A stretch of DNA of 64,000 nucleotides from Bdellovibrionota bacterium (GCA_050950765.1 JBMNIF010000002.1:864001-928000), one strand, 5' to 3'; numbered from the stretch's first letter, positions 19,689-39,937 are shown. Made by a program: numbers and translations. Notes: generated by a model not told the origin, from the letters alone.

Positions 19689-20657
19689 CCCTGAAGGGTG
19701 GCACCAAATTTTTTACCTCCGTCAAGATCTAGCTGATCCCGTGTTGCAGTATTAGCCCGCCCTGCCGTCCCTGAAGGGTGGCACCAAATTCGTCAAATTC
19801 TAGCTTTTTGCTAATATCTTGATATTATTGACTATTGTGGTTTTAAATCATCTGTGCCCCTGAAGGGTGACACCAAATTCGCCGAACCCAAGTTTTTACT
19901 AACATGCCGATATTATTAGATTGTTGTAATTTTAAGCTTTGGTTACCTTGCTTGCAAAGCATCTGCGCTCCTGAAGGGTGGCACCAGATTTTTGACCTCC
20001 GTCAAGATCTGACCGATCTGTTTTGCCATTGCAGCCCGTTCGATCGTCACTGGTCGATCGTCACTGGTGGGTGGCACCAAATTTTTAACCTCCGTCCAGA
20101 CCTAGCCGCTTCGTTTTTCAGTTGCCGCCCGCCCGATTGCCCCTGAAGGGTGGCACCAAATTCATCCAGTCGCTTAAGCCGTCAAAGCGGCAAAAAAGAA
20201 GGGTGGCACCAAATTTTCCGTGCCTTGCTTGCAAAGCATCTGCGCCCCTGAAGGGTGGCACTAAATTCTGCCCTATAAAGTTAATATGACTTCGCACTCG
20301 AGACCCCCAAAGGCTTTCTTCAATTAGGACCCCCACTTTTTACCCCCGTCCAGAGACCCCGTCTTACTGGTGGGTGGCACCAAATTCGCCGAATCTTAAG
20401 TTTTTACTAACATGCCGATATTATTAGATTGTTGTAATTTTAAGCTTTGGTTACCTTGCTTGCAAAGCATCTGCGCTCCTGAAGGGTGGCACCAAATTTT
20501 TTACCCCCGTCAAGATCTAGCTGATTCGGTTTTTAGTTGCCGCTCGCCCGATTGCCCCTGAAGGGTGGCACCAAATTTTTAACCTCCGTCCAGATCTAGC
20601 TGATTCCGTGTTGCAGTATCAGCCCGCCCTGCCGTCCCTGAAGGGTGGCACCAAATC
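19689..20657 (+). repeat. REP-like array A: 12 co-oriented copies of the GAAGGGTGGCACCA core
   Basis: Cores at about 19693, 19773, 19862, 19973, 20066, 20145, 20198, 20250, 20369, 20481, 20560, 20640; spacing 52-119 bp with reused linkers. Confidence 0.9.
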
Positions 20658-20771
20658 TGACTTGAGGGAAATGAATTTTTATAGGATCGTCTAATATATT
20701 CTAAAATGCTGACAGCAGAACCTGCTTAGTGTACACTCAGCGGCGGTTTCGCAATCTGTCGCGAGAGATAA

Positions 20772-22097
20772 ATGGAGATATTGGATATGAATGATGTGCA
20801 GTCAACAATTACGGATATTGACGAAGTAACTAAAAAAATTGAAGTCGTAGTACCAGCAACTCAAATTGATACAAAAGTGGCTGAAAAGTTGGATCGTCTT
20901 AGTAAAAAAGCGACTATAAAAGGGTTTCGTAAAGGGAAAGCCCCAAAGACGGTAATAGAAGGAATTTATGCGAATGATGCTTTTTTAGAGGTGGTCGGAG
21001 ACGTTGTTGATAGTTCTTTAAGGCAGATCGTTAAAGAGAACAGTATAAAAAATATCACAACTCCTGAGATAAGCCTTGAGGAGTGCGAGAAGGGAAAAGA
21101 TTTAAAGTTTTCTGCAGAGGTATCTATTTATCCGGAACCGAAGATTACGGGTTATGAGCATATTGAGATTGAAATTGAACCAAAGAAGATAATTTCTGAA
21201 GCTGATATTGAAGAGGCTATAGAGAGTGATAGGCTAGGACGTTCTTCTTTTAGAGAAATTGAAACGCGTGATGTTGCTGAAAAGGGAGATATCGCAAGTG
21301 TTACCGTTCAAGTTATTTATGAAGATAAACAACCGACAAAAGCAGAGCCTGCTGTAATTGAATTAGGGCGTGGTGAGGTGCTGGAGGAAATAGAAGAAGG
21401 TATCGTCGGTATGACTATCGGGGAAACGAAAGATATTAAAAAAATACTTTCTGAAAAAGAAGATGCTACTGATGAAAGACCTCTTACTTATAGAGTAACT
21501 CTTGATCTGTTAAATGAGAAGGTCTTGCCTGAAGTGACGGATGAGTTTGTGGTAAGTTTGGGATTGCCGAATGTAAATACAGTTGCTGAGTATCGTACGT
21601 TGATTGAAAACAACCTTAATAAAAAAGCTGAGAAAGAACATAAAGACATTACTAATGAGGCTATCCTTGAACATTTAAGGTCTGTAAATAAATTTATGGT
21701 ACCGCAGGTCATGGTTGATGATGAAATTAGACACCTTATTGTTAGAGCAGGAGTAATTGACTCGACAGAAGTTAATGTTGCAGAGATAGATGTAGAGCCG
21801 TTTCGTAAGGGCTTAGGCGAGATCGCTTTGAAACGAGCTGAGTGTGGTGTGATTGTTGATCGTATTGCAGTGGCGGAAAATGTTGAAGCTTCCGAAAGTG
21901 ATATCAGAGAGTGGCTAAAAGATGTATTCGAGCAAACTAACATTCCTCTTGAGATCCTAGAAGAAGGTTTTGATAACTATGAAACTAAAATGAAGGTTAA
22001 AGCGGAGGTCCTTCGTGATAAAACTTTGATCCTTCTTCAGGAAAGAACAACTGTGAAGATCAAGAAAACTGAAAAAATTGCTGAGGAGAAGAAATAG
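20772..22097 (+). CDS. tig: Trigger factor
   Basis: GFRKGKAP signature; upstream of clpP. Confidence 0.93.
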   Translation: MEILDMNDVQSTITDIDEVTKKIEVVVPATQIDTKVAEKLDRLSKKATIKGFRKGKAPKTVIEGIYANDAFLEVVGDVVDSSLRQIVKENSIKNITTPEISLEECEKGKDLKFSAEVSIYPEPKITGYEHIEIEIEPKKIISEADIEEAIESDRLGRSSFREIETRDVAEKGDIASVTVQVIYEDKQPTKAEPAVIELGRGEVLEEIEEGIVGMTIGETKDIKKILSEKEDATDERPLTYRVTLDLLNEKVLPEVTDEFVVSLGLPNVNTVAEYRTLIENNLNKKAEKEHKDITNEAILEHLRSVNKFMVPQVMVDDEIRHLIVRAGVIDSTEVNVAEIDVEPFRKGLGEIALKRAECGVIVDRIAVAENVEASESDIREWLKDVFEQTNIPLEILEEGFDNYETKMKVKAEVLRDKTLILLQERTTVKIKKTEKIAEEKK

Positions 22098-22133
22098 TTT
22101 TGCTGTTAAAGTGAAAAAACTTGGAGATGGTTT

Positions 22134-22805
22134 ATGGTAAAAGAAGAGATGAATTATTACATACCTTATGTTGTTGAACAGACGGGTAGAGGGGAGCGTT
22201 CTTACGATATCTATTCTAGACTTCTGAAGGAAAGGATTATATTTCTTGGAACTGAGATTGATAGTCAGGTCGCTAATATTGTAACGGCGCAGCTTTTGCA
22301 CTTGGAAAGTGAAGATCCTGAGAAAGATATTTTCCTTTATATAAATAGCCCTGGGGGAGAGGTAACAGCAGGGTTAGCGATTTATGATACCATGCAGTAC
22401 ATCAGACCTGATGTTGCTACTGTTTGTATCGGGCAGGCTGCCAGTATGGGAGCTGTGCTTTTGGCAGGTGGCGCCAAAGGGAAGAGATCGGCTTTGCCGC
22501 ATGCTAGAGTGATGATTCATCAACCCCTTGGCGGTTTTAAAGGGCAGGCTTCAGATGTGGAGATTCAAGCACGAGAGCTTTTTAGAATTAAGAAAGAGTT
22601 AAATGAGATCTTAAGCCATCACACTGGACAAGATGTCGCTAAAGTTGAAAAGGATAGCGATAGAGATAATTTTATGAGTGCTTATGAAGCTAAAGAGTAT
22701 GGCTTGATAGATGAAGTTTTCGAGCGTAATGCTAAACGTTCTGAAAAGCAGGGAAAGGCGGAAGAGACAGGAAAAAACGGAAAAGAAAAAAATAAAGAGA
22801 AATAA
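22134..22805 (+). CDS. clpP: ATP-dependent Clp protease proteolytic subunit
   Basis: [35 protein letters not shown]. Confidence 0.97.
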
Positions 22806-22973
22806 AGATAAAGTATCGTGCTGAACGGTAATATATCTGTAATGTTTAAGACGCAGTTTTTGCCATAATATGCGGTGGTAAAGGCTGCGTTTTTTTGTAA
22901 TGTGTTTTGTGTTGGATTGTTGAAGCCTGAAGTTGGCGTAGGTTTTATTGGTGGTAAAAGTTGGCTTTCAGCA

Positions 22974-22990
22974 CTGGTGGGTGGCACCAG
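22974..22990 (+). repeat. Single REP-like core CTGGTGGGTGGCACCAG
   Basis: Exact core variant in the clpP-clpX spacer. Confidence 0.8.
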
Positions 22991-23262
22991 CGACACTACA
23001 CTTTTTTTAAACGCTTTTAAAAAAATTCTTCTTATATTTTAATAAGCTGGATTGCTATAATGGACAAATTCACCTAAAAACTTTAAAAAACTCGGAAGTT
23101 AGCTTAGGTGCTATCGGTGGTAAAGGCTGCGTTTTTTGTAATTTGTTTTGTGTGATATCTGTAGAAAAACATAAATGCTTTTATTTATTTATAAATTTAA
23201 AGTTTTCTAAAGAATGAGAATGAGGTAATGTATAACTATTAAGCTTTATAGTTACTTCGTAT

Positions 23263-24549
23263 TTGGGGGTGCTTGTGGCAAAGAAGGGAGATAAAAGTTC
23301 AAATACATTAATTTGTTCTTTTTGTAATCGTACACAAGAAGAGGTCAGGAAGTTAATAGCTGGGCCATCTGTTTATATCTGTGATGAATGTATAGAGCTT
23401 TGTAATGATATTATTGCCGAAGAGCTGGATCAAGATGAGCACGTTGGTGTTGGTTCAGGTGTCCCAAAACCTAAGGAGATAAAGGAGTTTTTAGACCAAT
23501 ACGTTATCGGACAAGACTATGCAAAACGGGTATTGTCTGTGGCTGTGCATAATCATTTTAAGAGGCTTGAAAATAAAAGTTCTAAGTCTGCTGGAGATGT
23601 GGAGATAGCTAAGTCTAATATCTTGTTGATTGGTCCGACAGGTACTGGAAAAACTTTATTGGCTCAAACTTTGGCACGTATCTTACGGGTGCCTTTTACG
23701 ATTACAGATGCAACTACTTTAACTGAAGCTGGTTACGTCGGTGAGGATGTTGAAAACATTATTTTAAATCTCTTGCAAGCTGCTGATTATAATGTTGAGA
23801 AAGCAGAGCGTGGTATAGTTTATATTGATGAGATAGATAAGATCTCAAGGAAAACAGAAAACCCATCTATTACGCGTGATGTTTCTGGGGAGGGAGTACA
23901 ACAGGCGTTATTAAAGATGTTGGAAGGTACGATTGCTAGTGTGCCACCTAAAGGTGGTAGGAAACATCCGCAGCAAGAATTTTTACAGGTTGATACCAGC
24001 AATATCTTGTTTATTTGTGGTGGTGCTTTTGTGGGGTTAGAAGATATTGTTAGGCAACGTGTTGGAGAGAAAAAGCTTGGATTCGGTGTAAAACGAGAAG
24101 ATGAGGGTGCAAAAAAGAGTAAGGCTGAAGAGAAAGCTGAATTGCTGATGAAGGTTGAGCCGGAAGATCTGTTGAAGTTCGGTTTAATACCGGAGTTTAT
24201 CGGAAGATTGCCGTTAGTTGCGACTTTGTCAGACCTTGATGAAGATGCTTTAATTAAGATCTTAACAGAGCCGAAGAACTCACTTACAAAACAGTATAAG
24301 CGTTTATTTGATTTTGAAGATGTGCAGCTCCGTTTTACGGACTCTGCTTTGCGAGCAGTGGCAAAAAAATCCATCGAGAGAAAATCTGGTGCACGTGGAT
24401 TGAGAGCGATTCTTGAGAAGGTGATGCTTGATACGATGTATGAAATTCCGTCAGAGCCTGAAATTCAGGAAGTTGTTGTTTCTGAGGATACGATTTTAAA
24501 ATCAGAGCCGCCACTAATCGTTTATCACAAAAAGATGGAGAGTGCTTAG
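23263..24549 (+). CDS. clpX: Clp protease ATP-binding subunit ClpX
   Basis: CSFC zinc finger, [20 protein letters not shown]. Confidence 0.97.
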
Positions 24550-24914
24550 TTCGGGTTGTATAAGACCTCCTGTGATGTCAGAAAAAAGAAGTTTTTTTGG
24601 CTGAAAGATTAAAGTAAAGGGGGGCGGAGTAGGGCACTCTGTTTTTTCTGTATGTCAGAAAAAAGAAAGAGTTTTTTGAAAAAAAGTCTCTTTCTTTGTA
24701 TGAGTTAATCTCTTGATATTTTTCAATAGATATATTTTGATTATTTTCTGACTGTAGTTGCATCTAATGTGTTGTTGCTATTCCTATGTGTAGTTTGTCG
24801 AAATGTATTTTGTAGTCATTCTGATGAATTAAATGTTTGGAATGGTGTGAAAGCTATCGACAGATAAGGTGACTTCAATTATCTTATCTTCCGTTATTTA
24901 TTTGGAATCATTAT

Positions 24915-27362
24915 ATGAAATCATCAGTTGATAATCCTGTCCCGTTATTGGCGTTGCGAGAGTTAGTCGTTTTTCCGCAACAGGTGGTGCCACTCTTCGT
25001 TGGTAGAGATAAAAGCGTGAGAGCTATCGAAGAGTCTCAGAAAGAGAATAAATATATTATGTTATGTGCTCAAAAGGATAGTCATGTCAGTGATCCTAAA
25101 GAGAAAGATATCTATACCGTTGGTACGCTTGGCGAGGTCGTACAGTTAATTCGTTTGGCTGATGGACCGATAAAGGTGCTTGTTGAAGGCAAGGTGCGTG
25201 CTAGGATTAAAAATTACGTCAAAGATGATGACTTTATCATGGTTGATGTTGAAGAGCTTGCTCCTGCTACTGATGTTGATACTGATCTGAAAGGATTGAT
25301 GAGAGCTGTTAACACCATTTTTGAGCAGTATGTAAAACTTGGTAAAAAGCTTAATCCTGAGATGATAATGCAGGTGAATGCGATTGAGGATCCCTCACGT
25401 TTAGCTGATGCTATTGTGGTGCAGCTGAATATTAAGATGGAAGATAAACAGGAGATTCTTGAAACGATAGATCCTAAGGTGCGGCTTGAGAAAATTCATG
25501 ACCACATGAAGTCGGAAATAGAGATTTTGCAAGTTGAGAAGCGTATCCGCGGGCGTGTTAAAAAGCAGATGGAGAAGACGCAGAAGGAGTATTATTTAAA
25601 TGAGCAGATGCGTGCTATCCAGAAAGAGCTTGGCGATAAAGATGAGTTTAAAAATGAGATTCAAGAACTGGAGGATAAGCTTAAAGCTCTTGATATGCCT
25701 GAAGAGGCGCGTGATAAGACCTCTAAGGAGATTCGTAAATTAAAGATGATGTCTCCGATGTCGGCAGAGGCAACGGTGGTGCGTAATTACGTTGATTGGA
25801 TGTTGGCTTTGCCGTGGAGGTATAAGTCTGAAACTCAGGATGATATTGATCACGCTCGTGATATTTTGGAAGAAGATCATTACGGCTTGGAATCAGTGAA
25901 GGAGAGAATCCTTGAGTATTTAGCGGTGCATAAATTGGTCGGCAAGTTGAAAGGTCCGATAATCTGTTTAGTTGGCCCTCCAGGAGTAGGTAAGACTTCA
26001 TTGGGACGTTCCGTGGCGCGTGCAACGGGAAGGGAGTTCGTAAGGGTTTCATTGGGTGGTGTGCGTGATGAAGCTGAGATTCGGGGGCATAGAAGAACGT
26101 ATATAGGTGCGTTACCAGGGAAGATAATTCAATCTTTGAAGAAAGCTGGCACTGGTAATCCTGTTTTCCTGTTAGATGAAATAGACAAGATGTCTAATGA
26201 TTTTAGAGGCGATCCGTCTTCTGCGCTTTTAGAGGTCTTAGATCCGGAACAGAACGATACTTTTAATGATCACTATTTAGATTGTGATTATGATCTTTCT
26301 GATGTGATGTTTATTACAACCGCAAATACGTTACAATCAATTCCAGGACCGCTTCTGGATCGTATGGAGTTGATCCGAATTTCCGGTTATACGGAGATGG
26401 AAAAAACGTCAATTGCAAAGAAATATCTAATTCCGAAGCAATTGAAAGAGAACGGTCTCGAAGAGAAAAACTTAACGGTTGAGGATTCCGCTTTGACGGA
26501 GATCTTACGACGCTATACGCGCGAGGCAGGTGTGCGTAATGCTGAGAGAATGATTGCAACGTTGTGTCGTAAGGCTGCTGTGGAAGTGGTGAAAGAAGGG
26601 AAAGATCATCATATCACGATGACGAAAGATAATTTAGTGAATTATCTTGGACAGCCACAATACAGTTTTGGTAAGAGCGAAGAAGAGGATCAAGTTGGAA
26701 CGGCTACGGGGTTGGCGTGGACAGAGCTTGGCGGGGCGTTACTAGTGATTGAGACGACGGTGCTTCCAGGTAAGGGGCGTTTGCAGATCACTGGAAAACT
26801 TGGTGATGTAATGCAGGAGTCGGCGAAAGCCGCTCTCAGTTACGTTCGTTCTCGTGGTGATATGTTAGGCTTGCCGCGACATTTTTATGACAAGATCGAT
26901 ATTCATGTGCACGTTCCGGAGGGTGGGATCCCGAAGGATGGACCCTCTGCTGGTATCACGATAGCACTTTCTATCGTTTCTGCTTTAACGGGCATTCCGA
27001 TCGATAAAGAGATCGCAATGACTGGTGAGATCACGTTAAGAGGAAATGTTTTGCCTATCGGTGGATTAAAGGAGAAATCGCTTGCTGCGCATAGGGGTGG
27101 TATTAAGCGAGTTATGCTTCCGCGTGAAAACGAGAGTGATATTGACGAGATTCCCGCTACTGTGCGTAAAGATTTGGAGCTGATTCCGGTTCAGCAGGTG
27201 GATCAGGTTATCTTTGAGGCTCTCAAGTTCAGATCTGCGGCAGACTTCGAAAAGTTGCTTGATATGCGTCAGGTGCGAGATGATAAGTTCTTTGAAGAGC
27301 CCGAAAGAGGTGAAGACGAAGATTCTTCAATCAAAGAGAAGCCAGCAATGGTGACGCATTAG
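24915..27362 (+). CDS. lon: Lon protease
   Basis: [32 protein letters not shown]. Confidence 0.97.
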
Positions 27363-28218
27363 GGGGAGGCTGGTGCCACCCACCAGCCCCAAGCCCTTGT
27401 CCCTTGTCCCTGGCCTTGTCCCTGGTCTTGTCCCTGGTCTTGTCACTGGTGCCACCCACCAGTACGACCTGCTTTGCTGTTTTTACTCTTCTGACAGCCT
27501 TTTTTCTCCTTATGCTACTGCCAGCAAGCTTAGTTCACCTTAAATTTGATACTACAATTTACGATTAATTGACTATTTTCAGATTTTACAGATTTTACAG
27601 CTTGCTTGTCACTGGCTTGTCACTGGTGCCACCCACCAGCGCTAAGCTCTTATTATCCCTGTTCCCTGTTATCCCTGGTGCCACCCACCAGTACGACCTG
27701 CTTTGCTGTTTTTGCTCTTCTGACAGCCTTTTTTCTCCTTATGCTGCTGCCAGCAAGCTTAGCTCGCCTTAAATTTCCTTAGATTTGATACTACAACTTA
27801 CGATTAATTGACTATTTTCAGATTTTAGATAGATCTTCCCTGTTGAAATTTAGATTTCATATTATTAACGGCTCAAAAAAGCAGCTTTTTTACATTACTT
27901 TTTTCAGGTCGCCACCCCGCAAAGTTAGGGGGAGGCTGGTGCCACCCACCAGCCCCAAGCCCTTGTCCCTGGTGCCACCCACCAGTACGACCTGCTTTGC
28001 TGTTTTTGCTCTTCTGACAGCCTTTTTTCTGCTTATGCTGCTGCCAGCAAGCTTAACTCACCTTAAATTTCCTTAAATTTGATACTACAATTTACAATTA
28101 ATTGACTATTTTCAGATTTTAGATAGATCTTCCCTGTTGAAATTTAGATTTCATATTATTAACGGGTCAAAAAAGCAGCTTTTTTACATTACTTTTTTCA
28201 GGTCGCCACCCCGCAAAG
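27359..28218 (-). repeat. REP-like array C: 6 minus-strand CTGGTGGGTGGCACCAG cores inside duplicated 150-290 bp blocks
   Basis: ctggtgccacccaccag at 27370, 27446, 27623, 27675, 27936, 27969; the block that follows is repeated 3 times. Confidence 0.9.
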
Positions 28219-29166
28219 CCTACCTACAATAGGCATACTCGGACGAAATGCCCCATAAACAAACTTAGCTGAAATATCACCTTGCTTCCACTTCTTCCAA
28301 GCCTTTCTACACTCTTCACAAAAAGCCTTATATTCTGCTATCGCTTTTATCCGTAACTCCTTAATCCAACAAATTAAATACGGCGTACGCGTCTTCTTCT
28401 TAGGTACATACGCAATATTTATCGATTGCTGCTGCACTTTACGCATCCCCATAAAATGCCCCTTCCTTTCAAGTGCAATCTCTTCTTCCCTTTTTGAAAT
28501 CTCTGTCATTATTGTTTTAAAGATCTCTTCAGACGTAAGGTTTTTTGATTCTTCAAAACAATTCTTCCAAGCATCAGGGGTAATCTTAAGCTCATGACAA
28601 GTGTGCGGAAACATATTAAGCATTTTTAATAAAATAGCATCGCTTATTTTATGAAGTCTCTGCGGTAACTTACGTAAATTAGTAGAAGAGGTATACTTAC
28701 CCTGCACTGTTAAAGAACCTGATTTATACATTCTAAAACTACTACACCCTTCCCAATCATCAGCATGTGCAACGAGTCCTGCTTTTACAGGATTTATATA
28801 AATATAGACTATCTTATCGATAACATCATTATGAGTTAACAAACGTTGCTCCTTAAAACGTCCATCCCAAACGTTTCTCCTATATTGCGGCGTTAGTTTC
28901 TTAATAGCACGTGCAACTGCACTTTCCATCTCTCCCATAAATGAAGAGATGTGCTTTCCTTCACCAACTAATATCATGTGAAAGTGGTTACTCATCCAAT
29001 TAAAATGAGCAATTCTAACACGATGGTGCTCTTGGCAACGAGCCATAATCCCTAACAGGATCCATTTCATAAAAAGGCGTGCTAGAAATGGCAAGCCAGA
29101 TAATGTTCTATTGGTGACATGTACCACCATTTTATTAGGATTTCTCCTATCTCGACGATTTCTCAT
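28198..29166 (-). CDS. REP-associated tyrosine transposase (RAYT/TnpA-REP; HUH Y1) with C-terminal extension
   Basis: HVTNR, MSNHFH (HUH), VWDGRF, YIYINPVKAGLV (catalytic Tyr), DW..SS; flanked by repeats. Confidence 0.9.
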   Translation of the reverse strand: MRNRRDRRNPNKMVVHVTNRTLSGLPFLARLFMKWILLGIMARCQEHHRVRIAHFNWMSNHFHMILVGEGKHISSFMGEMESAVARAIKKLTPQYRRNVWDGRFKEQRLLTHNDVIDKIVYIYINPVKAGLVAHADDWEGCSSFRMYKSGSLTVQGKYTSSTNLRKLPQRLHKISDAILLKMLNMFPHTCHELKITPDAWKNCFEESKNLTSEEIFKTIMTEISKREEEIALERKGHFMGMRKVQQQSINIAYVPKKKTRTPYLICWIKELRIKAIAEYKAFCEECRKAWKKWKQGDISAKFVYGAFRPSMPIVGRLCGVAT

Positions 29167-29315
29167 AAGACAACTCCAGATGAAAAATAAAAATAATCAA
29201 TAAATTGGCAGAATTGCCAGTTAGTTTGGCAGGATTGCCAAATTCTAACGCCTAATTGTCGCTAGAGTTGGGATTTTATTGTGGGTAAAAATGAAAAAAG
29301 TTTGGAGATTGGGAT

Positions 29316-29528
29316 TGGTGCCACCCTTCAGTGGCTGGGAAGGTGTTAGAGAAAGAAAAGAAGGGTGGCACCAGTTTTTACCCCCGTGAAGACCTAGCTG
29401 ATCCGTTTTGCAGTCCCAGCCCGTCCGGTCGTCCCTGAAGGGTGGCACCAGTTTTTTAACCCCCGTGAAGACCTAGCTGATCCGTTTGCAGTTCCAGCCC
29501 GTTCAGTTGTCCCTGAAGGGTAGCACCA
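29316..29528. repeat. REP-like array D (1 minus core, then 3 plus cores)
   Basis: TGGTGCCACCCTTCAG at 29316; GAAGGGT(G/A)GCACCA at 29360, 29437, 29515. Confidence 0.9.
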
Positions 29529-29532
29529 GAGG

Positions 29533-29561
29533 TTGACATTAGTTATCCAAATGAGTAATTT
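29533..29561 (+). promoter_or_regulatory. Sigma70 promoter of tRNA-Val
   Basis: TTGACA-17 bp-TAATTT, ending about 20 bp upstream of the tRNA. Confidence 0.65.
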
Positions 29562-29580
29562 TTGCTGTGTTGTCAGAGAA

Positions 29581-29657
29581 GGGCGCTTAGCTCAGTTGGT
29601 TAGAGCGTTAGCCTTACAAGCTAAAAGTCACTGGTTCGAGGCCAGTAGCGCCCACCA
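29581..29657 (+). tRNA. tRNA-Val(TAC)
   Basis: GGGCGCT/AGCGCCC acceptor stem, TTAGC-CTTACAA-GCTAA anticodon arm, GGTTCGAG T-loop, encoded CCA. Confidence 0.97.
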
Positions 29658-29800
29658 GTCGTAAATGCCAATCATTAAGTATCTCTCACTACTTCCTTTT
29701 AGACTAATTTCTTAATTCTACTAATAAATACCAAGTAGGGGAAATAATTTAGGTGGGTGGCACCATCTATCTACCACCCATTTGACGAGTTTTTCGATTT

Positions 29801-32074
29801 TTAACTAATTTCTTTTCTGATCTCCTTTGCTGCCTGCACTAGATGTTTAAGGCTAGGTACAGTTTCAGCATTTCCTCTCGTTTTCAGACCGCAATCAGGG
29901 TTAACCCACAACTTAGATGCTGGAATGGTTGCAAGCATTTTACGGAGTGCTGTCTTTATTTCTTCTACGCTTGGAATCCTCGGAGAGTGAATATCGTAAA
30001 CACCTGGACCGACCTCTGTTTTGAAATTACACTCTTTAAGTGCTGCCAATATCGTTAAATCAGAGCGTGATGCCTCAAAAGTTATTACATCTGCATCCAT
30101 ATTATCGATGTCTTTGATAATATCGCCGAATTCACTGTAACACATGTGTGTATGAATCTGCGTTTCCGGTTTAACACCGCTGTGAACCATCCTGAAGGCA
30201 GGGATCGCCCAATCGAGATATTCACTTTTCCAATCAGATTTGCGAAGCGGTAATTTTTCACGAAGAGCAGCTTCATCTATCTGGATAATTCTGATACCGT
30301 TTGCTTCAAGATCTAGCACTTCATCGCGGATGGCGAGACCGATTTGAAAAGCGCATTCTTTTAAGGAGATATCCTCACGTGGAAACGACCAATTGAGGAT
30401 AGTAACGGGTCCCGTTAACATACCTTTCATTGGTTTTTCTGTAAGACTTTGCGCATAGATCGACCACTCAACTGTCATCGGATTTCTTCTTGAAATATCC
30501 CCCCACACTACGGGTGGTTTTACGCAACGCGTACCATAGGACTGCACCCACGCTTTTTCGGTAAAAAGATATCCGTCAAGGCATTCTCCAAAATATTCAA
30601 CCATATCGTTGCGCTCAAATTCGCCATGAACGAGGACATCAAGTCCGATCTGTTCCTGTAATTTGATGCATTCTGAAATTTTCATCTTGTTGAATTCTTT
30701 ATACTGCGTCTCCGAAATCTCTCCTTTCTTAAATAAAGAACGATTTGCTTTGACATCTGTTGTTTGAGGAAATGAGCCGATAGTCGTTGTTGGCAACAAT
30801 GGTAAATTAAAAATCTTTTTTTGAATTGTTTCACGTTCTGCAAAAGCTGGAAGCCTTGTGAAGTCCTTATCTGTCAACGCAGCAACCTTTTTCTGGACAC
30901 TTTCGTTTGTGCAATCTCTCTGTTCTGCAAAAAGAGAAGTGTTATGGAGATACTCTTTTTCGTTTATTGGATTGGAAGATTGTATAATTGATTTCAATTC
31001 TGAAAGTTCCGTCAATTTTTCAACAGCAAACGAAAAATGCTTCTTATATTTATCAGCGAGTTTTGTTTCATTATCGAGAGTGTACGGGACATGTAGGAGC
31101 GAACATGATGTGTTTAAAATAATATTGTCGCAGTGACTTCGTAGTTCATCTATGATCTTCAGGGTTTTTAAATAATTATTGCGCCAGATGTTTTTACCAT
31201 TAATAATTCCCGCAAAGAGGGCTTTTTCAGTAGGAAAACCGTATTTTGTTACGAGGGAGAGCGATTGCTTCCCTTCAATAAAATCAAGTCCTATCCCGTC
31301 AAAATTAAGTTTCGTTATTGTTTCATAACAATCTCGGACATCTCCAAAATAGGTTTGTAGTAAAACTTTAACAGCACCTTTAGAACTAAGAATTTTACTG
31401 TAGAGTGATTCGAAAAGCACAATATCTTCATCTGTTAAATCTTGGACAAGGAAAGGCTCATCGAACTGCACCCACTGTGCTCCGAGGGTGTTAAACTTCA
31501 CAATAATTTCGGAGTATGCTTTTGCAACGGCATCGGCAAAATCTAAGGCGCTCTTAACCCCTGTAAAGCGCGTCAATTTTAAAAATGTAAACGCACCGAC
31601 TATTACAGGTTTTGTAATTAATCCTTGTTCTTTTGCTTCGATAAATTCATCAAATGGTTTTGTACCAACCAGCTTAATCTCCGAACAGTCGTCAATTTCA
31701 GGAACGATATAATGATAGTTAGTGTTAAACCATTTCTTCATGGCGAGTGCTTTCACATCGCCGTTTTCGCCTTGATAACCTTTTCCGGCAGCAAAATACG
31801 TGTCAAGTGAAGATAAGTTTAGTGCCTTGTACCTTTCAGGAATAACGTTCAATAAAAAAGCAGTATCGAGCGTATTGTCATAATAAGAAAAGTCGTTCGA
31901 AGTGATTAGGTCGAGCCTGCCGCTCTGTTGGACGTTCCAGTGAGCACGACGAAGAGCCTTCGCAGTTTGCTCGAGACTTTCTGCTGTTATTTCACTTTTA
32001 AAGTATTTTTCTGAGGCATGTTTTAATTCTCTAAGGGTTCCAACGCGTGGAAATCCGACAATTGATGTTTTCAT
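29801..32074 (-). CDS. metE: Cobalamin-independent methionine synthase
   Basis: [50 protein letters not shown]. Confidence 0.97.
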
Positions 32075-32795
32075 GGGAATTTGTCCTTTTAATTTATAGT
32101 GCTATTTTTCGCCATAGGGTAACGTCTATTTTTTATGCAATTACATAGGCTATTGGTTTTTATAAATAATTTTACGTAATTTACTATTTAAAATAGTATT
32201 AATAGCTAACTATACTTACAAAGCAGTGATGTGGTGGATAGTGCCACCCATTAAAAATACCGCCTCCAACCTACTCGATTAGGATACAGCACTGCAAGTT
32301 GATTTTTTATATGGTCTTTTAGAGGAGGTAAAAAAGAAGGGTGACACCAGAGCCAGTCCAACCGTAAAAGTCCTAACAAACAGCCCTGCTTTACTGAAGG
32401 GTGGCACCAGCGCCAAAGCCACCAAAGCCAAAGCCAAAGCCAAAGGCAGCAGATCAGCTCAAACTGAAGGGTGGCACCAGAGCTACAGTCTCAAGATCTG
32501 GCAGAACCGTCCAAACTGAAGGGTGGCACCAGAGCAAACCAACCGCTCGAAGTCTTCAAGAAGGCAAAAAAAGAAGGGTGGCACCAGTACAAATCAACAG
32601 ATCCGACCAGTTCTAACCAGAAAGAGAAGCCAGAGAAAAGAAGGGTGGCACCAAATTCGGTTCCAACAGGCACCGAAATCAGGCAGATCCGTCCAAACTG
32701 AAGGGTGGCACCAGTGCAAACCAAACTCCCAGAGTCTTCAAGAAGGTAAAAAAAGAAGGGTGGCACCAAAGCCCAAGCTAGCAAAGTAGTAAAAA

Positions 32796-34623
32796 CCTGA
32801 ATTCCCGCGAAATTATACCATACAAACGTGTTTTTAAAGGTAGCTTTCGAGCGGTATAATCTTACTTTTTCTTAAAAATACTTTTTAGAAAGTCATCTTC
32901 TTCAATATTGAAAATTTTCAAAATATCCTTTTGTTTTTTTGTTAACGGAACCATTAATTTACTGCCATTTTTAGTTTCTATAACTTTAATTTTTTGAAGC
33001 TCTTTAATGACATCAGGTATATTAAACTTTTTTTGCCTTGTATCATTTTTAAGTAAATTAAGAATATAACTTCTAAGTATAAGAGCTAAAAATCCAACAA
33101 AAAGTTTTCCTTCTGTGGTTTGAAGATTATGTGTTTTAAGTCTTCTAAAATCAATTTCATTTTTTAGCTGGAAAAATTGTTTTTCAATTACATCTTTTTG
33201 ACGATAACGAAAAAGTGCTTCACTCGGATTTGAATCACAACCAATACCAATCAAAATTAAGAAGCCACAATTTCTCAAGTATTCATCTATAGCTTCTGAT
33301 TTTTTTTCATAAGTGAAACCATCTTCATTTATTTTAATATCAAAATATTTCCTATATTTTTTACGATCCAGCAAAGAGTATTTTAATTTTTTCAGTTCTT
33401 CTAACTCTTCTTCCATTCTAGAAATTTTCTCGTAAAATTGAACTATCTCATATGGCGCCTTTCCCATATTGTAATAAACATAAATCTTTACAGGTTGTCC
33501 CATAACAGTATCTATTACAGAACAACCAAAAGTAGAGGTTCCTTTTATATAATTAGCATCTTGCTTAATAAGTGCAGTGTGATTTTCTAATATTCTTTTA
33601 GCGTCATTCCAATATAGTGGCAAAGGACAAAGTAGTCCAAACTTTTGCCCTTCTTCATTTGCTACTTCCGCTAAATTATCTTGCGTCACAAAACCTTGAT
33701 CCGTAACAAGGTTAATACGATTATTAAGACTAATAAATGGAAAGTCTCTTAAAAGAAAACTAAAATATGTCTTATCTGTAATGCTGCCATTATAAACTTG
33801 ATAGAATAAAGGAAGCTTCGTTGTAGAGCCGTAGCACATACCTATATTTATTTGCGGCAATTTATCCATATCCCTATTATAGCCAAACTCCAATATGCTT
33901 ATTTTTTTACTATAAGAAGATATGGAAGTTACGTCATAATACCAACATTCTTGAGCTAAATATCGCTTCGTCCATTTCTTAAAAAAATTAAGTCTTTTCT
34001 CGTAGTCAATACGTTCAAAAAGACGACTTATTTTTTGACTTGTTAATTCAGAAATTTCATATGGTAAGACACTATCATCTATCCAACTTGAAGCATGTGA
34101 TACTACATTTCCATTTGCTAGAATATAAAACGCTAAAGTTAAAATCTCGTATGTGTCATTTCCAAAAATTGAAAGCAATGTCTTGTCTAACCTTAAATCT
34201 TTTACAATCTTATTTAAAACATAAGTAAGACCAAAAGATTTATTGCTAATAACATATCTATTAGAATCATCTGGAAACAAATCATAGTAATTTCTATTAG
34301 GAATTAATTTCTTACCGCTTTCATCTAGCTTCCCTATACCTATTTCATCAAACGTAGGCTCTCCGTTTTCACGACGAAAGTTCATCCTGTAATAGATATA
34401 AGTAGTCCCATTTTTGTTTTTCTTACGAGCAATTTGCCTATCTGGTAAGTCAACTTTTTTAGTTATTTTTTTCATAAAAAACCTCCCTAATATGTATAGG
34501 GCAATCATACCATACAAACAGGAAATGTCAATATAGAAAAATATATAACTAACTAAAATATCAATAAAAAATACGGTGGCTTATTTCTGGAATGGAGAAA
34601 AGATAAAAATTGCGGAATTTAGG
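32796..34623 (-). mobile_element. IS1634-family insertion sequence
   Basis: Imperfect terminal IRs CCTGAATTCCCGC / GCGGAATTTAGG; 6-bp TSD TAAAAA at 32790-32795 and 34624-34629; AT-rich. Confidence 0.88.
32862..34475 (-). CDS. IS1634-family DDE transposase
   Basis: YYDVTSISSY, FGYNRD..LPQIN, DQGF, YRQKDVIEKQF..LK, GKLFVGFLALIL; RBS GGAGGT before ATG at 34475. Confidence 0.9.
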   Translation of the reverse strand: MKKITKKVDLPDRQIARKKNKNGTTYIYYRMNFRRENGEPTFDEIGIGKLDESGKKLIPNRNYYDLFPDDSNRYVISNKSFGLTYVLNKIVKDLRLDKTLLSIFGNDTYEILTLAFYILANGNVVSHASSWIDDSVLPYEISELTSQKISRLFERIDYEKRLNFFKKWTKRYLAQECWYYDVTSISSYSKKISILEFGYNRDMDKLPQINIGMCYGSTTKLPLFYQVYNGSITDKTYFSFLLRDFPFISLNNRINLVTDQGFVTQDNLAEVANEEGQKFGLLCPLPLYWNDAKRILENHTALIKQDANYIKGTSTFGCSVIDTVMGQPVKIYVYYNMGKAPYEIVQFYEKISRMEEELEELKKLKYSLLDRKKYRKYFDIKINEDGFTYEKKSEAIDEYLRNCGFLILIGIGCDSNPSEALFRYRQKDVIEKQFFQLKNEIDFRRLKTHNLQTTEGKLFVGFLALILRSYILNLLKNDTRQKKFNIPDVIKELQKIKVIETKNGSKLMVPLTKKQKDILKIFNIEEDDFLKSIFKKK

Positions 34624-34794
34624 TAAAAAAGAAGGGTGGCACCAGAGCTACAGCCCCAAGATTTGGCAGATCCGCCCAAACTGAAGGGTGGCACCAAATT
34701 CGACCAGCCCAAATCCGCCAGTCCAAACCAAAGCTAAAGCCAGCAGATCAACCTAAACTGAAGGGTGGCACCAAATTCGACTCCCCAAATTCGA

Positions 34795-35907
34795 CTACTC
34801 TTCGTCTATATCGGCTGTCGGTGTGGGAGATTCGATGGTGGCTGCTGTATTTGCTTCGGCGGTGTCTATATCTACATCCGCACCCTCTGTTTCTTCAGAG
34901 GTGTGTGTATTTACGGAGGTGCCTATATCAGCACCATTAGAAGTGTTTGTATTCGAAAATTTTTCTTTAATTTCTTCTACGGGGATGCGGCGCTCCTCTC
35001 CAAAACGCATCTTTATTGCGATGCGGCGGTTTGCTATGGCGTACGGATCGTCCACCACACGCGGATATTTATCCGCCCGTCCTATCACCCCGACGATGCG
35101 CTCTTCTGGAATATTTGCTTCTAATAATAAACGTCGTGCAGCATTTGCCCTGTCAGTTGATAGCTCCCAGTTTGAATATCCTCCGCTTAAACCGCTATTG
35201 TAAGGATGGGCATCTGTATGACCGAGGATATCTATCTTGTTAGGGAATGGAACTAACTGAGCTGCTACCCGTAAGAAAGCCTCTTTTGCTTTTGGATTGA
35301 TAACAGCACTTCCACTTTCAAACATGGAGTACTCTTCAGTATCCATAATCTCCATGACCAGACCATCAGCTTCAACCTGTATCTCAAATTTGCCTAAAGC
35401 GTTTTTCAATTCCGGAATATCTACAAGTTGTGTATTTATTGAGTGTGCTAACTTAGTGAAGTTACGCTTTTCATTTGTCCCACCTTCACCGTCTTCTTCT
35501 GCGGAATCAATATCTTCATCGCCCTCTTTTAAAGGAGAAGCTCCCTTTGATTTAAAAAAGCCATCTTCTCCATCTGTTTTTGCGCTATCTTCAGCCTTTG
35601 AACTTTTCTCAAACGCCATCCCTCCTCCCCCTGGAAGGTTATGAACTGAAAACGGTCTGTCTAAAATACCTGTGTGACCTGGAAGAAGACTTCCGCCAGA
35701 GTTTTCAGCAAATATCCCTGGATCATTGAAGTATTTGGCGATGCCAGTTTTTGTGGCAGAGTCAGCGCTGTTAACAAGCCACATCACAAGAAAGAATGCC
35801 ATCATGGCGGTCATGAAGTCAGCATACGCTACCTTCCAAGCGCCACCATGATGTCCGGCATGACCGCCTTTCTTTTTAATAATTATGATTGGCTTTTCGT
35901 CCGCCAT
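34795..35907 (-). CDS. motB: Flagellar motor stator protein MotB
   Basis: HHGGAWKVAYADFMTAMMAFF; OmpA-like GHTD...NWELSTDRA...NRRI. Confidence 0.93.
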   Translation of the reverse strand: MADEKPIIIIKKKGGHAGHHGGAWKVAYADFMTAMMAFFLVMWLVNSADSATKTGIAKYFNDPGIFAENSGGSLLPGHTGILDRPFSVHNLPGGGGMAFEKSSKAEDSAKTDGEDGFFKSKGASPLKEGDEDIDSAEEDGEGGTNEKRNFTKLAHSINTQLVDIPELKNALGKFEIQVEADGLVMEIMDTEEYSMFESGSAVINPKAKEAFLRVAAQLVPFPNKIDILGHTDAHPYNSGLSGGYSNWELSTDRANAARRLLLEANIPEERIVGVIGRADKYPRVVDDPYAIANRRIAIKMRFGEERRIPVEEIKEKFSNTNTSNGADIGTSVNTHTSEETEGADVDIDTAEANTAATIESPTPTADIDEE

Positions 35908-35921
35908 CTCTTCCCATTAAC

Positions 35922-36797
35922 TTATTCTTTCTTAACACTCTTTGCGTCTTTTATAATCTGTTCTAATTCCTCAGCTGTCGGACGCATATCTGAAGGAATC
36001 GTTTTTCTTGAAAATTCGAGCGCTACTTGTGGTGGGGAACCACCGGCAAAGGCTACAAGCCCGATCTGTACAGTCTTTAAGATATTGGTAGATTCTTTAA
36101 CGTTATTCTCCATCTTTGAACCGATGGGCGAAACGAAACCGTATCCGAGTAAGATACCAAGTAACGTTCCAACCAGAGCAGCTGCCACGTGGTGTCCGAT
36201 CGCTTCAGGTCCTTCATTCAAAGCTTGCATGGTAATGATAATACCAAGCACGGCAGCTACAATACCGAGAGCAGGGAATCCGTCAGCAAATTTCTGAATG
36301 ACCGCGGGATAGATCGACTCTTCTTCGTGATGAGTTTCAATCTCTGTATCAAGAAGCCTCTCAAGTTCAAAAGCATTGACCACGCCATCGACAAACATTC
36401 TTAGAGCACCGACTAAAGTTTCCATCAGATGATGGTTGTTTGAAGCCGCAGGATATGTTTTAAAGCGTGGACTATCTTTCGGATTTGCCAAGTCGTTTTC
36501 AATACCAAGCACACCTTCTCTCCTCATCGTATCAAAGATACTTGCCATCAAGCCTAATAGATCGAGGTATGTTTTCTTATTGATACCACTCCCTTTTACT
36601 GCACCAAGTACAGCAGGAATAAGCCTTTTTAGAATGTTCCCCGGATTACCAATAATAACGGTAAAAAACGAACATCCGGCGATAACGACAAATTCGTACG
36701 GTTGTAGCAATACTCCCAAGAGTTTTGTTCCACCCGGACCAGCCAATCCGATAATGACGCAACACAATACGCCTAGGCACCCTATTATTACACCCAT
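35922..36797 (-). CDS. motA: Flagellar motor stator protein MotA
   Basis: PALGIVAAVLGII, AALVGTLLGILLGYGF, ALEFSRK. Confidence 0.93.
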   Translation of the reverse strand: MGVIIGCLGVLCCVIIGLAGPGGTKLLGVLLQPYEFVVIAGCSFFTVIIGNPGNILKRLIPAVLGAVKGSGINKKTYLDLLGLMASIFDTMRREGVLGIENDLANPKDSPRFKTYPAASNNHHLMETLVGALRMFVDGVVNAFELERLLDTEIETHHEEESIYPAVIQKFADGFPALGIVAAVLGIIITMQALNEGPEAIGHHVAAALVGTLLGILLGYGFVSPIGSKMENNVKESTNILKTVQIGLVAFAGGSPPQVALEFSRKTIPSDMRPTAEELEQIIKDAKSVKKE

Positions 36798-36860
36798 AGC
36801 ATTAATCCTTTGTGATTATCACTTCCTATGGGTAATAGTCGGCGCCGTAAAAATATTACT

Positions 36861-37493
36861 TTACGAGAATTTTAATATTCCGAAATCTTTAAGGTTATGG
36901 AAGGTTTTGGAGCTCATTTTACGTAGACTCCAGAGGGTCGGTTCTGTCGCATCATAATCGATTCTTGTGATATTTATACGCCAAAACGTGCCCACCTGTG
37001 GTGGTATTTCAGCTAAACCCGTCATTAAACAAAATGGAATAAAAAATTCAGCAGCCCAGTTTTTATCTCTATTTAAACAATGAATTCTATGTTCAATTTT
37101 ACGCTCATTTTCATAATGCCACGGACGCCACCCCATAAATTCGCCGTTATATTGCGGTACGAGAAGGACTAATTCCTTATTTTTGGGCGATATCTCATAC
37201 TCTAAATATAACGGTATGTCACAGTTTGGTTGTAAAAAAACTTCAACGACATCCTCTTTGTAAAGGTCATCAAAATCTTGTGTAGCGCTACTACAAGAGA
37301 GCTTCTTATCTTCACATGAAATAAGAAAATAGATGCCATCATCGGACCAAACAGCTTTAAATTCAGTGTTATAATCTAAAGTTCCTGCCGATCTGGTTAG
37401 TTTTGTCCAATTAAGAGAATTCCACGGTTTTATCGCATCATCTGCGTTGATAGAAAATGTTGCTACATGTTTTATGATCAGATCTTGCGCCAT
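36861..37493 (-). CDS. Carbohydrate-binding family 9-like protein
   Basis: WSDDGIYF, LYKEDVVEVF, YLEYEISP, WAAEFFIPF, WRINITR. Confidence 0.75.
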   Translation of the reverse strand: MAQDLIIKHVATFSINADDAIKPWNSLNWTKLTRSAGTLDYNTEFKAVWSDDGIYFLISCEDKKLSCSSATQDFDDLYKEDVVEVFLQPNCDIPLYLEYEISPKNKELVLLVPQYNGEFMGWRPWHYENERKIEHRIHCLNRDKNWAAEFFIPFCLMTGLAEIPPQVGTFWRINITRIDYDATEPTLWSLRKMSSKTFHNLKDFGILKFS

Positions 37494-37974
37494 CTATAGA
37501 CTCCCTAACGTTAGATATGTTAAGCGTGACACGGTGCTGCTTTTTCGCGATGGGTTTTTATCATGAAATAAAACGCAACTATTAGGGAATGGGTGTTTTT
37601 TTCAAACAGCGTTTGTCTCTTTGTCTTGAAATGCTCTTATTGCCATTATTCGGGGTGACGTGCAATATTATTGGGGTAAGATAGCTCCGAACTTCGTAAG
37701 GGTGTTTATAGAAGTATTTAAATGGTAGATTCAATCTTTCTTCCTCTTTAGCGCTTTTTAAGGAGGGAGAAAGGTAAAAAGTGTCTGTGTAGTTGTTGTT
37801 CTTGGAGCGTTTGAAGGTGTTTGTGATTAAAGCTCTAGGAGCTTTAATAATTTGTTGTAAAAAAAGAGAATATTTTCTGTATTCTATAGCATCTACTAAT
37901 TTGTCATGATAGCGCTGATGGCAGTTGCTTTCATGAAAGTGACTCTATAACAAATATTTTAGGAGTAAGTGCTC

Positions 37975-38268
37975 GTGAATAAATCTGAGTTAATGGAAAG
38001 GTTGGCGGAAAAGTGCGGTATTAATATTATGCAAGCTGAAGATGTGGTAAATCTTATCTATCGCAAGATGAGAGATACCCTTGTTAGCGGCGGACGTATT
38101 GAAATTCGCGGCTTTGGAAGTTTTGTTGTTAAGGAATATAAAGCTTATCAGGGACGCAATCCGAAGACTGGTGCAAAGATCTCCGTCCCGAATAAAAAAC
38201 TTCCGTTCTTTAAAGTTGGTAAAGAGCTTAAGGAGCGCATCGACACTATAGATGAGCCAGGGGCGTGA
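37975..38268 (+). CDS. ihfB: Integration host factor beta / HU family
   Basis: MNKSEL, RIEIRGFGSF, GRNPKTG, PFFKVGKELKER. Confidence 0.88.
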   Translation: MNKSELMERLAEKCGINIMQAEDVVNLIYRKMRDTLVSGGRIEIRGFGSFVVKEYKAYQGRNPKTGAKISVPNKKLPFFKVGKELKERIDTIDEPGA

Positions 38269-38325
38269 ATTTCTTAATAGGCTACTTCGTTTTTTATTAT
38301 AGTTACCTGTTTTCTAGGGCATAAA

Positions 38326-38706
38326 ATGTCGATTGATTGGTTATGGGATTTAGATAGGGCCGTTGAAGGTGGAAGAGTTTACTATGGATGCCAGAGTGTT
38401 GGCAGAAATCAGTGGGCTATCGCAAGGTCTGTAGATGAATTAAGGGCAATTGCAAAACGTGCTGCAGACCACAAGAGGCTCCCTGTCGATATTGTTAGAA
38501 TTGTCTCTCCGCATGAGACTATTGCAGGAGATCTCTACCTCGTTCCGATTGACGTGGGAGACCCTGGACATCGCGGAGAGCCAAATGTTAAATGGACCTG
38601 TGTTGAAACCAGAGAAGCCGCAGATATGATGAAAGATGTTAGAAAGGGTCCATCTCCTATTTTTGGGATTCAGATAGAAGAGACAATAGATCCAACAGCT
38701 GTATAA
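38326..38706 (+). CDS. Hypothetical protein
   Basis: 126-aa ORF co-oriented with ihfB, ordinary composition. Confidence 0.7.
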   Translation: MSIDWLWDLDRAVEGGRVYYGCQSVGRNQWAIARSVDELRAIAKRAADHKRLPVDIVRIVSPHETIAGDLYLVPIDVGDPGHRGEPNVKWTCVETREAADMMKDVRKGPSPIFGIQIEETIDPTAV

Positions 38707-38712
38707 GTTGTT

Positions 38713-38855
38713 TTTTAAGAGTCTGTTGTAGTTGTAGGTGTGACTATTCTTATAACCGGTTGGCTGGCGAAGGTTCTTCCGACGTTGCCGCCGGTTTTTA
38801 AATATAATTCCTTAGGAATCGACACGTCACAGATGCAGCCCCTTCCGTAAAAGTC
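38713..38855 (-). pseudogene. Duplicated 3' end of the yjeF-like gene
   Basis: Near-identical to 39952-40088. Confidence 0.85.
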
Positions 38856-38876
38856 CTAACAAGCAGCCCTGCTACT

Positions 38877-39937
38877 GAAGGGTGGCACCAGTACAAATCA
38901 ACAGATCCGACCAGTTCTAACCAGAAAGAGAAGCCAGAGAAAAGAAGGGTGGCACCAAAGCCAAAGCTGCAGCAAAGTAGTAAAAAAGAAGGGTGGCACC
39001 AAACCCAAACCAAAGCCAAAGCTGCAGCAAAGTAGTAAAAAAGAAGGGTGGCACCAAACCCAAACCAAAGCCAAAGCTGCAGCAAAGTAGAAAAAAGAAG
39101 GGTGGCACCAAAGCCAAACCACCAAAGCCGAAGCCAAAACCAAAGCCAGCAAAGTAGTAAAAAAGAAGGGTGGCACCAAACCCAAACCAAAGCCAAAGCC
39201 GAAAAAAGGAGGGTGGCACCAGTTTTAAGCCAGATCTAGGCACCGCAAAAGTCCTGACAAGCAGCCCTGCTACTGAAGGGTGGCACCAAAGCCAAACCAG
39301 TTTTTCAAGAAGGTAAAAAAGAAGGGTGGCACCAAACCCAAACCACAGCAAAGTAGAAAAAAGAAGGGTGGCACCAGTTTTAAGCCAGATCTAGGCACCG
39401 CAAAAGTCCTGACAAGCAGCCCTGCTACTGAAGGGTGGCACCAAAGCCAAACCAGTTTTTCAAGAAGGTAAAAAAGAAGGGTGGCACCAAACCCAAACCA
39501 CAGCAAAGTAGAAAAAAGAAGGGTGGCACCAGTTTTAAGCCAGATCTAGGCACCGCAAAAGTCCTGACAAGCAGCCCTGCTACTGAAGGGTGGCACCAAA
39601 GCCAAACCAGTTTTTCAAGAAGGTAAAAAAGAAGGGTGGCACCAAACCCAAACCACAGCAAAGTAGAAAAAAGAAGGGTGGCACCAGTTTTAACCACCAG
39701 TACAAATCAACAGATCCGACCAGTTCTAACCAGAAAGAGAAGCCAGAGAAAAGAAGGGTGCACCAAAGCTGCAGCCCCAAAGCAAAAGCCAAAGCTCGCA
39801 AAGTAGCAAAAAAGAAGGGTGGCACCAAAGCCGAACCAAAGCCGAACCAAAGCCGAAGCACCAAAGCCGAAGCCGACTGGTGGGTGGCACCAAACCCAAA
39901 CCAAAGACAAAGCCAGCAAAAAAGAAGGGTGGCACCA
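38877..39937 (+). repeat. REP-like array F: 20 co-oriented cores, including a 155-bp unit x3
   Basis: Cores from 38877 to 39924, spacing 42-80 bp; equivalent cores at 39275, 39430, 39585. Confidence 0.92.

Follow-up and report, generated by a model that had tools for sequence, protein, structure and literature searches.

A 64,000-nucleotide stretch of DNA from a Bdellovibrionota bacterium (the window; C2:864001-928000 of a 2.64-Mb, 5-contig, 40% G+C genome, G000) contains many copies of a short repeat, the core, together with a gene for a Y1/HUH transposase. The bacterium is uncultured, and its Lon protein is 73-80% identical to that of metagenome-assembled genomes labelled Bdellovibrionota. 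Sequence comparison indicates that the ~950 cores dispersed through this genome are very probably the cognate repeat family of a Y1 transposon. On balance we favour a wider reading, in which the core is the end and recognition sequence of an element that encodes a class-2 Y1 transposase of the RAYT/TIRYT type and in which the enzyme also exchanges DNA from core to core. That second component, enzyme-made exchange as the builder of the core arrays, we would place at, or slightly short of, evenly balanced.

The motif GGTGRCACCA is matched exactly 53 times in the window, where 0.07 matches would be expected, and 0 of 100 shuffles reached that number. All but one of the matches (52) lie within 19689-39937, the remaining one being at 14324 (positions without a contig name are those of the window). 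An initial annotation of this DNA had described about 55-57 cores lying between genes, in arrays centred on the transposase gene. The intergenic placement is upheld genome-wide: only 67 of 961 cores fall inside open reading frames (ORFs) of at least 100 aa, although such ORFs, which are greedy calls rather than gene-finder output, cover ~80% of the DNA, and those hit are mostly short spurious ORFs within arrays. The centring on the gene has to be abandoned, because the 961 cores form 145 clusters of 1-28 copies throughout the genome, spanning 63,148 bp or 2.4% of it, and the core density in the window is only ~2x the genome average.

The 11-nt core, GGGTGGCACCA, has 943 exact copies in G000. 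It sits in an extended consensus, C-T-G-A-A-G-GGTGGCACCA-A-A-T, of which G-GGTGGCACCA is near-invariant, and there is no GTAG tag in this consensus. Just 140 further copies carry one mismatch and linker bodies within a single unit family are just 70-81% identical, which indicates that the core is under much stronger constraint or homogenization than its surroundings. When flanked by GGTG the core reads CTGGTG-GGTGG-CACCAG and is predicted to fold into a 6-7 bp stem with a 5-nt loop (-6.0 kcal/mol, DNA fold). This hairpin form, CTGGTGGGTGGCACCAG, is the right-end (RE) core of the element; further core-bearing forms are CTGAAGGGTGGCACCAA and CTGAAGGGTGGCACCAAA, the latter a non-hairpin core. The core is indeed palindromic, as first noted, but the 9 bp given for the palindrome understated the hairpin that is available to the 215 of 961 cores with a stem of at least 5 bp. 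The other 78% do not have such a stem, and 617 of 961 cores, including the CTGAAG and AAGAAG flank classes, have a stem of 1 bp only. Among the matches listed, literature searches on Bdellovibrio repetitive extragenic palindromes (REPs) and on the core sequence in either strand returned no description of this repeat.

A multicopy Y1 element and its relatives

The transposase gene (P0001, 322 aa; 28198-29166, minus strand) is not a single-copy RAYT. It belongs to an active-looking ~1.5-kb element with six full copies and one fragment in the genome, the full copies being 97.4-99.2% identical over ~1,404 nt and sharing query positions 36 to 1532 when the reference copy is compared with the genome by BLAST. 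The window copy extends from its outer inverted core to the RE hairpin core (27965-29456, minus strand; C2:891965-893491 by BLAST). In contigs from four independent runs the element has ~3.5-6x the depth of its single-copy flanks.

All six copies have the same layout: inverted core, 79 bp, inverted core, 37-38 nt, forward core, gene and forward hairpin core. In gene orientation the element reads ACTGGTGCCACC, a 79-bp family-A unit, ACTGGTGCCACCCTTC, 37-38 nt and (G/A)AAGGGTGGCACCAAT, followed by 159 nt, the gene, ~215 nt and ACTGGTGGGTGGCACCAG. At the two extremities 12 nt form perfect inverted repeats, the terminal inverted repeats CTGGTGCCACCC ... GGGTGGCACCAG close all six copies, and the distance from forward core to RE core is 1,345-1,346 bp in each. 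The gene thus has the core on both sides in every copy. In the window copy the RE hairpin core (27969-27985, minus strand; 6-bp stem, -6.0 kcal/mol), which is the 3' end of six of six copies, and the forward core (29316-29325, minus strand), 159 nt upstream of the ATG, enclose the gene. Beyond them the left end (LE; 29364-29450, plus strand) has a single 79-bp family-A unit with a core on either side (29364-29373 and 29441-29450), both cores being in the orientation opposite to the gene. Across 38 nt, the inner LE core and the forward core form a 14-bp inverted repeat. Arrays continue outward from the element with inverted cores on its left and forward cores on its right, and the most frequent 16-mer flanking the gene occurs 307 times.

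Three of the six full copies have 5'-truncated element 3' ends immediately downstream, each closing with an RE core. The window holds two (27672-27924 and 27442-27588, minus strand), both within the RE-side array of six cores (27371-27979, minus strand). Others are found at G000:C2:8905-9331, where the last 77 residues are still encoded at 84% identity, and at C3:210415-210485.

P0001 matches the Pfam family Y1_Tnp (E 7.2e-7), and the six element copies provide the only Y1_Tnp matches in the genome. Its scores against the NCBIfam models REP_Tyr_transpos (NF047646; 67.4 bits, cut-off 80) and IS200 (NF033573; 18.3 bits, cut-off 55) are both under the cut-off. The HUH residues H61 and H63 and the motif Y121-x3-N125-P126 are invariant in 25 aligned homologues, in which conservation reaches the C terminus. 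The best solved relative of the structure model (pLDDT 89.7, pTM 0.88) is the Escherichia coli TnpA-REP 4er8 (VIA-align Z 14.1, rmsd 2.7, 154 residues aligned; for 4er8_A, Foldseek E 2e-6 and TM by target 0.72; profile against PDB sequences, E 6.4e-9), whereas IS608 TnpA (2vhg) reaches Z 7.8. The invariant motifs and this structural match agree with the assignment, made at the outset, to Y1/HUH enzymes of the RAYT (TnpA-REP) type.

Behind the catalytic domain P0001 has a C-terminal extension of ~175 residues. No Pfam match was found for residues ~148-322, either with the whole protein (E up to 0.01) or with 12 C-terminal halves (E up to 1), and at the same thresholds there was no match to a Bac_DnaA_C, HTH_23 or HTH_28-like domain. 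Modelled alone, the extension gives a weak prediction (pLDDT 68.6, pTM 0.34) whose best structural match has Z 4.1, so that its modelled fold is one without assignment rather than one demonstrated to be new. Residues ~265-283 contain a conserved F-C-x-x-C-R and a frequent further Cys (I-C), none of these Cys being invariant in the 25-sequence alignment.

A word-indexed search for homologues returned only 16, every one on contigs of at most 4 kb. With a full profile, 442 representatives were recovered at E up to 1e-30, and full-length homologues are present in 37 of the 41 genomes of the order (G000 included) and in 100 of the 124 phylum genomes searched, usually several per genome. These relatives are species representatives distant from G000 (nearest, Tig 27-40% identical). 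The check set at the outset, whether homologues in relatives have cognate ends of their own, comes out positive at 8 of 12 testable loci. At the eight (in G025, G028, G013, G007, G030, G020, G015 and, at one end, G040), homologues of 25-34% identity are flanked by inverted ends of the form CTGGTNC..CCCA, or CTGGAG.. in G030. The core of G025 is the same as that of G000, and the ends elsewhere are CTGGTGCGTCCCA in G028, CTGGTCCGTCCCA in G013, AACTGGTACATACCACCA in G007, CTGGAGGGGGCCTACT in G030, ACCT(C/A)GTACGTC(C/T)CA in G020 and a tandem run of CTGGTGCCCCCA in G015. Their distance from the gene is 70-380 nt on the upstream side and 210-350 nt on the downstream side. Five of eight right ends fold as a hairpin, and the left ends do not. 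The right-end stems show compensating change (CTGGTG/CACCAG versus CTGGAG/CTCCAG) and reach 13 bp in G028. Taken across the relatives, these loci show the putative ends and the proteins to diverge together.

Amplification of the core is special to G000 among the 41 genomes: GGGTGGCACCA has 943 copies there, 37 in G019, 16 in G025, 9 in G040 and at most 6 in any other, counts that are to be read with the fragmented state of most relatives' assemblies, in which arrays may be unassembled. The 37 cores of G019 form direct arrays (AAAACAGGGTGGCACCAG; loci L100, L101 and L102, for example G019:C9:21090-21480).

Modular arrays and their assembly

The ~107 multi-copy clusters comprise 89 that are strand-pure and 18 that are mixed, in keeping with the co-oriented direct arrays first described, and there are only 16 close inverted core pairs genome-wide. 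Within the arrays, 796 linker-plus-core units of 32-160 bp are stacked head-to-tail, with core-to-core spacing peaks at 79 nt (102 cases), 53 nt (61) and 88 nt (41). The units fall into sequence families, the largest being A (79 bp, 153 members), followed by B and C (53 bp), D and E (87-88 bp), F (65 bp), G (32 bp) and H (111 bp); ~45% of units fall in small clusters. Their order differs between arrays over the 141-145 clusters and is intermixed with higher-order periodic blocks, and the linkers were thus aptly described as reshuffled modules. An origin of the linkers in the element itself finds no support for most, since only 91 of 796 units match the element and its surrounding 330 nt on either side, nearly all of them the LE-adjacent 79-bp unit.

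At array edges an inverted core is present on the upstream side in 11 of 95 arrays and on the downstream side in 1 of 95, which matches the LE module of the element. The flanks beyond the first and last exact cores, compared to see whether a unit goes with its 5' or with its 3' core, resemble linkers on either side (upstream 66/84, downstream 51/84), a weak asymmetry that reflects arrays running on into decayed cores.

To account for these arrays we propose that the Y1 enzyme nicks one strand at or in a core and rejoins it to another core. Stretches between co-oriented cores, the 1,345-bp gene stretch included, could in this way be excised, copied or inserted beside an existing core, and repeated core-to-core joining would stack and reshuffle units in one orientation, after which ordinary tandem duplication would expand blocks locally. 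The scheme is modelled on the IS200/IS605 enzymes, which act on one strand via circular single-strand intermediates (PMC6006769). Exchange of this kind would account for modular units stacked in direct orientation. It would also lead one to expect both the shuffled unit order and the independence of the 5' and 3' core flanks (odds ratio 0.91, p 0.58), the latter because each flank would belong to a different neighbouring unit, with the joint inside the core. Rearrangement breakpoints that coincide with cores are shown by three observations: the indels between the flanks of the six element copies are whole core-bounded units, a solo LE module stops exactly at a core (C1:385498), and the inverted cores favour the upstream array edge.

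Several points weigh against this proposal. Most cores are unable to form a hairpin of the sort bound by solved Y1 enzymes, and no conserved structure was found in the units: for the nine largest families, in either strand, the only pairing that RNAalifold gave was between palindromic halves of adjacent cores. The replication-strand bias of the cores is weak (547 versus 414, hand-summed). The order within arrays rests on a single assembly; independent short-read contigs support the genes, the element and the array edges, and break within arrays, and the joints listed from four DNA runs, with sides of 20-32 letters (one of 54), bear neither way on unit movement. Most relatives with homologous genes have the degenerate end pattern barely above control, and so show no amplification of their own ends, although arrays may be unassembled in these mostly fragmented genomes. 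Arrays without the gene, a situation that the initial annotation had singled out in advance, do occur in G019, in whose 92%-complete, 20-contig assembly no Y1_Tnp gene was detectable, yet its cores remain far below the 943 of G000 in number; they may be repeats orphaned when the gene was lost. Finally, exact duplicates among the units are mostly local, with 79 near pairs in the same array against 10 far pairs, and 19 of the near pairs have identical neighbours on both sides, the sign of block duplication. Host slippage or unequal exchange therefore certainly contributes to the arrays and could be the main driver.

The most serious rival builds on that last point. The element would have seeded the cores, arrays would then grow and reshuffle by host slippage, unequal crossing-over and gene conversion among related linkers and cores of 11-20 nt, and the Y1 enzyme would move the full element only. 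Besides the local and block duplicates, the higher-order periodic blocks, such as the tandem ~155-bp block at 39212-39686, and the tandem partial 3'-end duplications beside three of the six element copies fit this account. It explains other features less readily: 12 near pairs are single identical units whose neighbours on both sides are of different families, unit order is shuffled widely over 141-145 clusters, and the core is at least 10x better conserved than the linkers, which would need selection or homogenization acting on the core itself. Homology of 11 nt is, moreover, short for RecA-dependent exchange. We regard host recombination as sole builder of the arrays as possible but unlikely.

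If instead the cores served the host as binding or processing sites, for example for nucleoid organization, transcript 3' ends or mRNA stability, with the Y1 protein maintaining them as in a domesticated REP/RAYT-like system, their placement might follow: 47 of 141 clusters lie between convergent genes, compared with ~16.5% of all intergenic regions, an enrichment typical of REPs, and 100 of the 124 phylum genomes searched have the protein family. The gene, however, is multicopy and near-identical like an insertion sequence, amplification is confined to 1 of 41 genomes, arrays have no set orientation towards genes (47 antisense versus 25 sense in co-directional regions), most cores have no hairpin and the units have no Rfam match. 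Domestication is accordingly improbable, and the arrays, in which there is no sign of host function, resemble non-autonomous passengers carried by the element. As for CRISPR-like or RNA-producing loci with acquired spacers, the superficial likeness of short direct repeats 30-105 bp apart is set aside almost entirely by a repeat of only 11 nt at 145 loci, by 'spacers' that are repeat families of up to 153 copies, and by an Rfam search of 19000-41000 at E up to 1 that found only tRNA-Val and one chance-level snoRNA match (E 0.42); no Cas domain was found in the 14 window proteins scanned against Pfam, no search aimed at cas genes having been made.

Comparison with known systems

Among the kinds described so far, the TIRYT/TIRtron branch of the REP/RAYT systems comes nearest, and the element and arrays of G000 are an unusual variant of such systems rather than a new kind. 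The label of candidate novel system given at the outset was therefore too strong: RAYT-like genes enclosed by terminal inverted repeats are already described as TIRYTs or TIRtrons, and some of these repeats belong to families arranged as dimers or clusters (PMC3733652). The likeness lies in a RAYT-like Y1 gene between terminal inverted repeats that are not classical GTAG REPs, in an inverted repeat that belongs to a genome-wide clustered family (943-961 copies, 145 clusters) and in a protein that is longer than RAYTs through a C-terminal extension. The differences are equally clear. There are ~950 copies here against families called 'moderately abundant' in PMC3733652, they are stacked head-to-tail with modular linkers, up to 28 cores in one array, and the gene has six near-identical copies. 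By eye, neither GGGTGGCACCAG nor the relatives' ends fit GGGGWSAS, which is the motif of some TIRYTs only, and the extension has no Bac_DnaA_C or HTH Pfam match.

TIRYTs have been equated with TnpA-Y1 subclass 2.1, whose members bear C-terminal HTH-like domains and in whose gene neighbourhoods no REP-like sequences are reported to have been found (PMC6006769). The same source gives Y---NP as the signature of class 2 TnpA-Y1 proteins and describes a subclass 2.3 whose proteins have a median of 325 aa and which in some orders exceeds five copies (PMC6006769). Compared with that description, P0001 is a candidate member of subclass 2.3 by length and copy number only.

Like the REPtrons of E. coli and Pseudomonas (RAYT/TnpA-REP; PMC2817692, PMC3116915, PMC3333891), the element combines an enzyme with the RAYT fold and catalytic motifs, 4er8 being the best match, with inverted copies of an abundant intergenic repeat on either side of the gene and a right end that is a small hairpin. 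REPs are 20-40 bp hairpins in inverted pairs, whereas here 89 of 107 multi-copy clusters are direct and the GTAG tag is missing. RAYTs also stay at low copy number, averaging 1.3-1.8 copies per replicon with a near-identical duplicate in 0.8-6.3% of Group 1 and Group 3 members (PMC5581495), in contrast to the six near-identical copies in G000.

With the IS200/IS605 elements (IS608, ISDra2) the system shares a Y1 HUH transposase (Pfam Y1_Tnp) that is multicopy at high identity. Their enzymes are ~130-150 aa long, compared with 322 aa here, and match the P0001 model less well (Z 7.8 versus 14.1). The hairpins of IS200/IS605 elements are subterminal and occur at either end, and these elements are not known to have terminal inverted repeats. 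The CRISPR arrays differ in their unique spacers, the linkers in G000 forming repeat families of up to 153 members. What sets this genome apart is the ~950 copies, the head-to-tail modular arrays, the multicopy active-looking gene and the 175-residue C-terminal extension without assignment.

Integron cassette arrays consist of co-oriented modules, each ending in a recombination site, that are thought to be excised as circles and reinserted. Integrons use the tyrosine recombinase IntI, far longer attC sites and gene-bearing cassettes, with one array per integron. The enzyme class differs from the Y1/HUH protein of G000, and the parallel is one of analogy only. It nevertheless frames a tentative and more specific form of the exchange, in which the Y1 enzyme would be a single-strand site-specific cassette shuffler that excises core-to-core DNA as a circle and reinserts it beside another core. 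Were this correct, it would be the HUH-enzyme counterpart of integron cassette arrays and a working model for the spread of RAYT/TIRYT repeats, a question unresolved for REPs, whose mechanisms of dissemination are described as poorly understood (PMC8266576).

Whichever mechanism built the arrays, the genome offers a clean natural case, with one apparently active Y1 gene family and one 11-nt core in ~950 copies. It also combines hairpin and non-hairpin cores, unit rearrangements with breakpoints at cores and relatives with diverged, compensating ends, and so supplies precise oligonucleotide substrates and clear biochemical predictions. RAYT/TIRYT-type repeat families can, on this evidence, fill 2.4% of a small genome as direct arrays. 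Such arrays would escape repeat finders tuned to inverted REP pairs, and short-read assemblies break at them.

Other features of the window

The five arrays of 12, 6, 4, 11 and 20 cores listed for this region are reproduced when degenerate copies are counted, the array of 11 being one of 8 and 3 cores split by a DDE insertion sequence. The first (19689-20653, plus strand; exact cores 19697-20653) occupies the nuoF-tig gap with 11 exact cores and one degenerate core (GGTGGCACTA), in family-A (79 bp), ~110 bp and 53 bp units. A single core (22980-22989, plus strand) lies in the clpP-clpX gap. The RE-side array of six follows, and beyond the gene the four-core array (29316-29765; one core on the minus strand, three on the plus strand) is made up of the forward core and the two left-end cores of the element and a single core by metE, which lies in the tRNA-Val-metE gap (29756-29765, plus strand). 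The tRNA-Val gene itself (29581-29657, plus strand) lies ~50-130 nt past the outermost left-end cores, with a degenerate core (CTGGTGCTACCC) between.

The split array has its left part, of eight cores, at 32340-32768 and its right part, of three cores, at 34635-34773 (both plus strand). The intervening DDE_Tnp_1 insertion sequence (1,828 bp, 32796-34623; gene 32862-34517, minus strand) lies within one repeat unit and has TAAAAA(A) on both sides, resembling a 6-7 bp target duplication. Its depth is ~2-11x that of single-copy DNA in four runs, and ~3.7-4x in the two deepest.

The largest array (38881-39937, plus strand) has 19 exact cores and one degenerate core, and includes the tandem three-unit block of ~155 bp (39212-39686). 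Its linkers contain A/C-rich low-complexity runs (AAAGCCAAACC...), which give rise to spurious ORFs of 90-144 aa on both strands.

Sequencing runs that contain DNA near-identical to 18300-22100 come from at least 15 studies, which sampled anaerobic digesters, bioreactors, wastewater and landfill. At least half of the sampled words are present in 16 runs, and the organism is thus widespread in engineered anaerobic systems.

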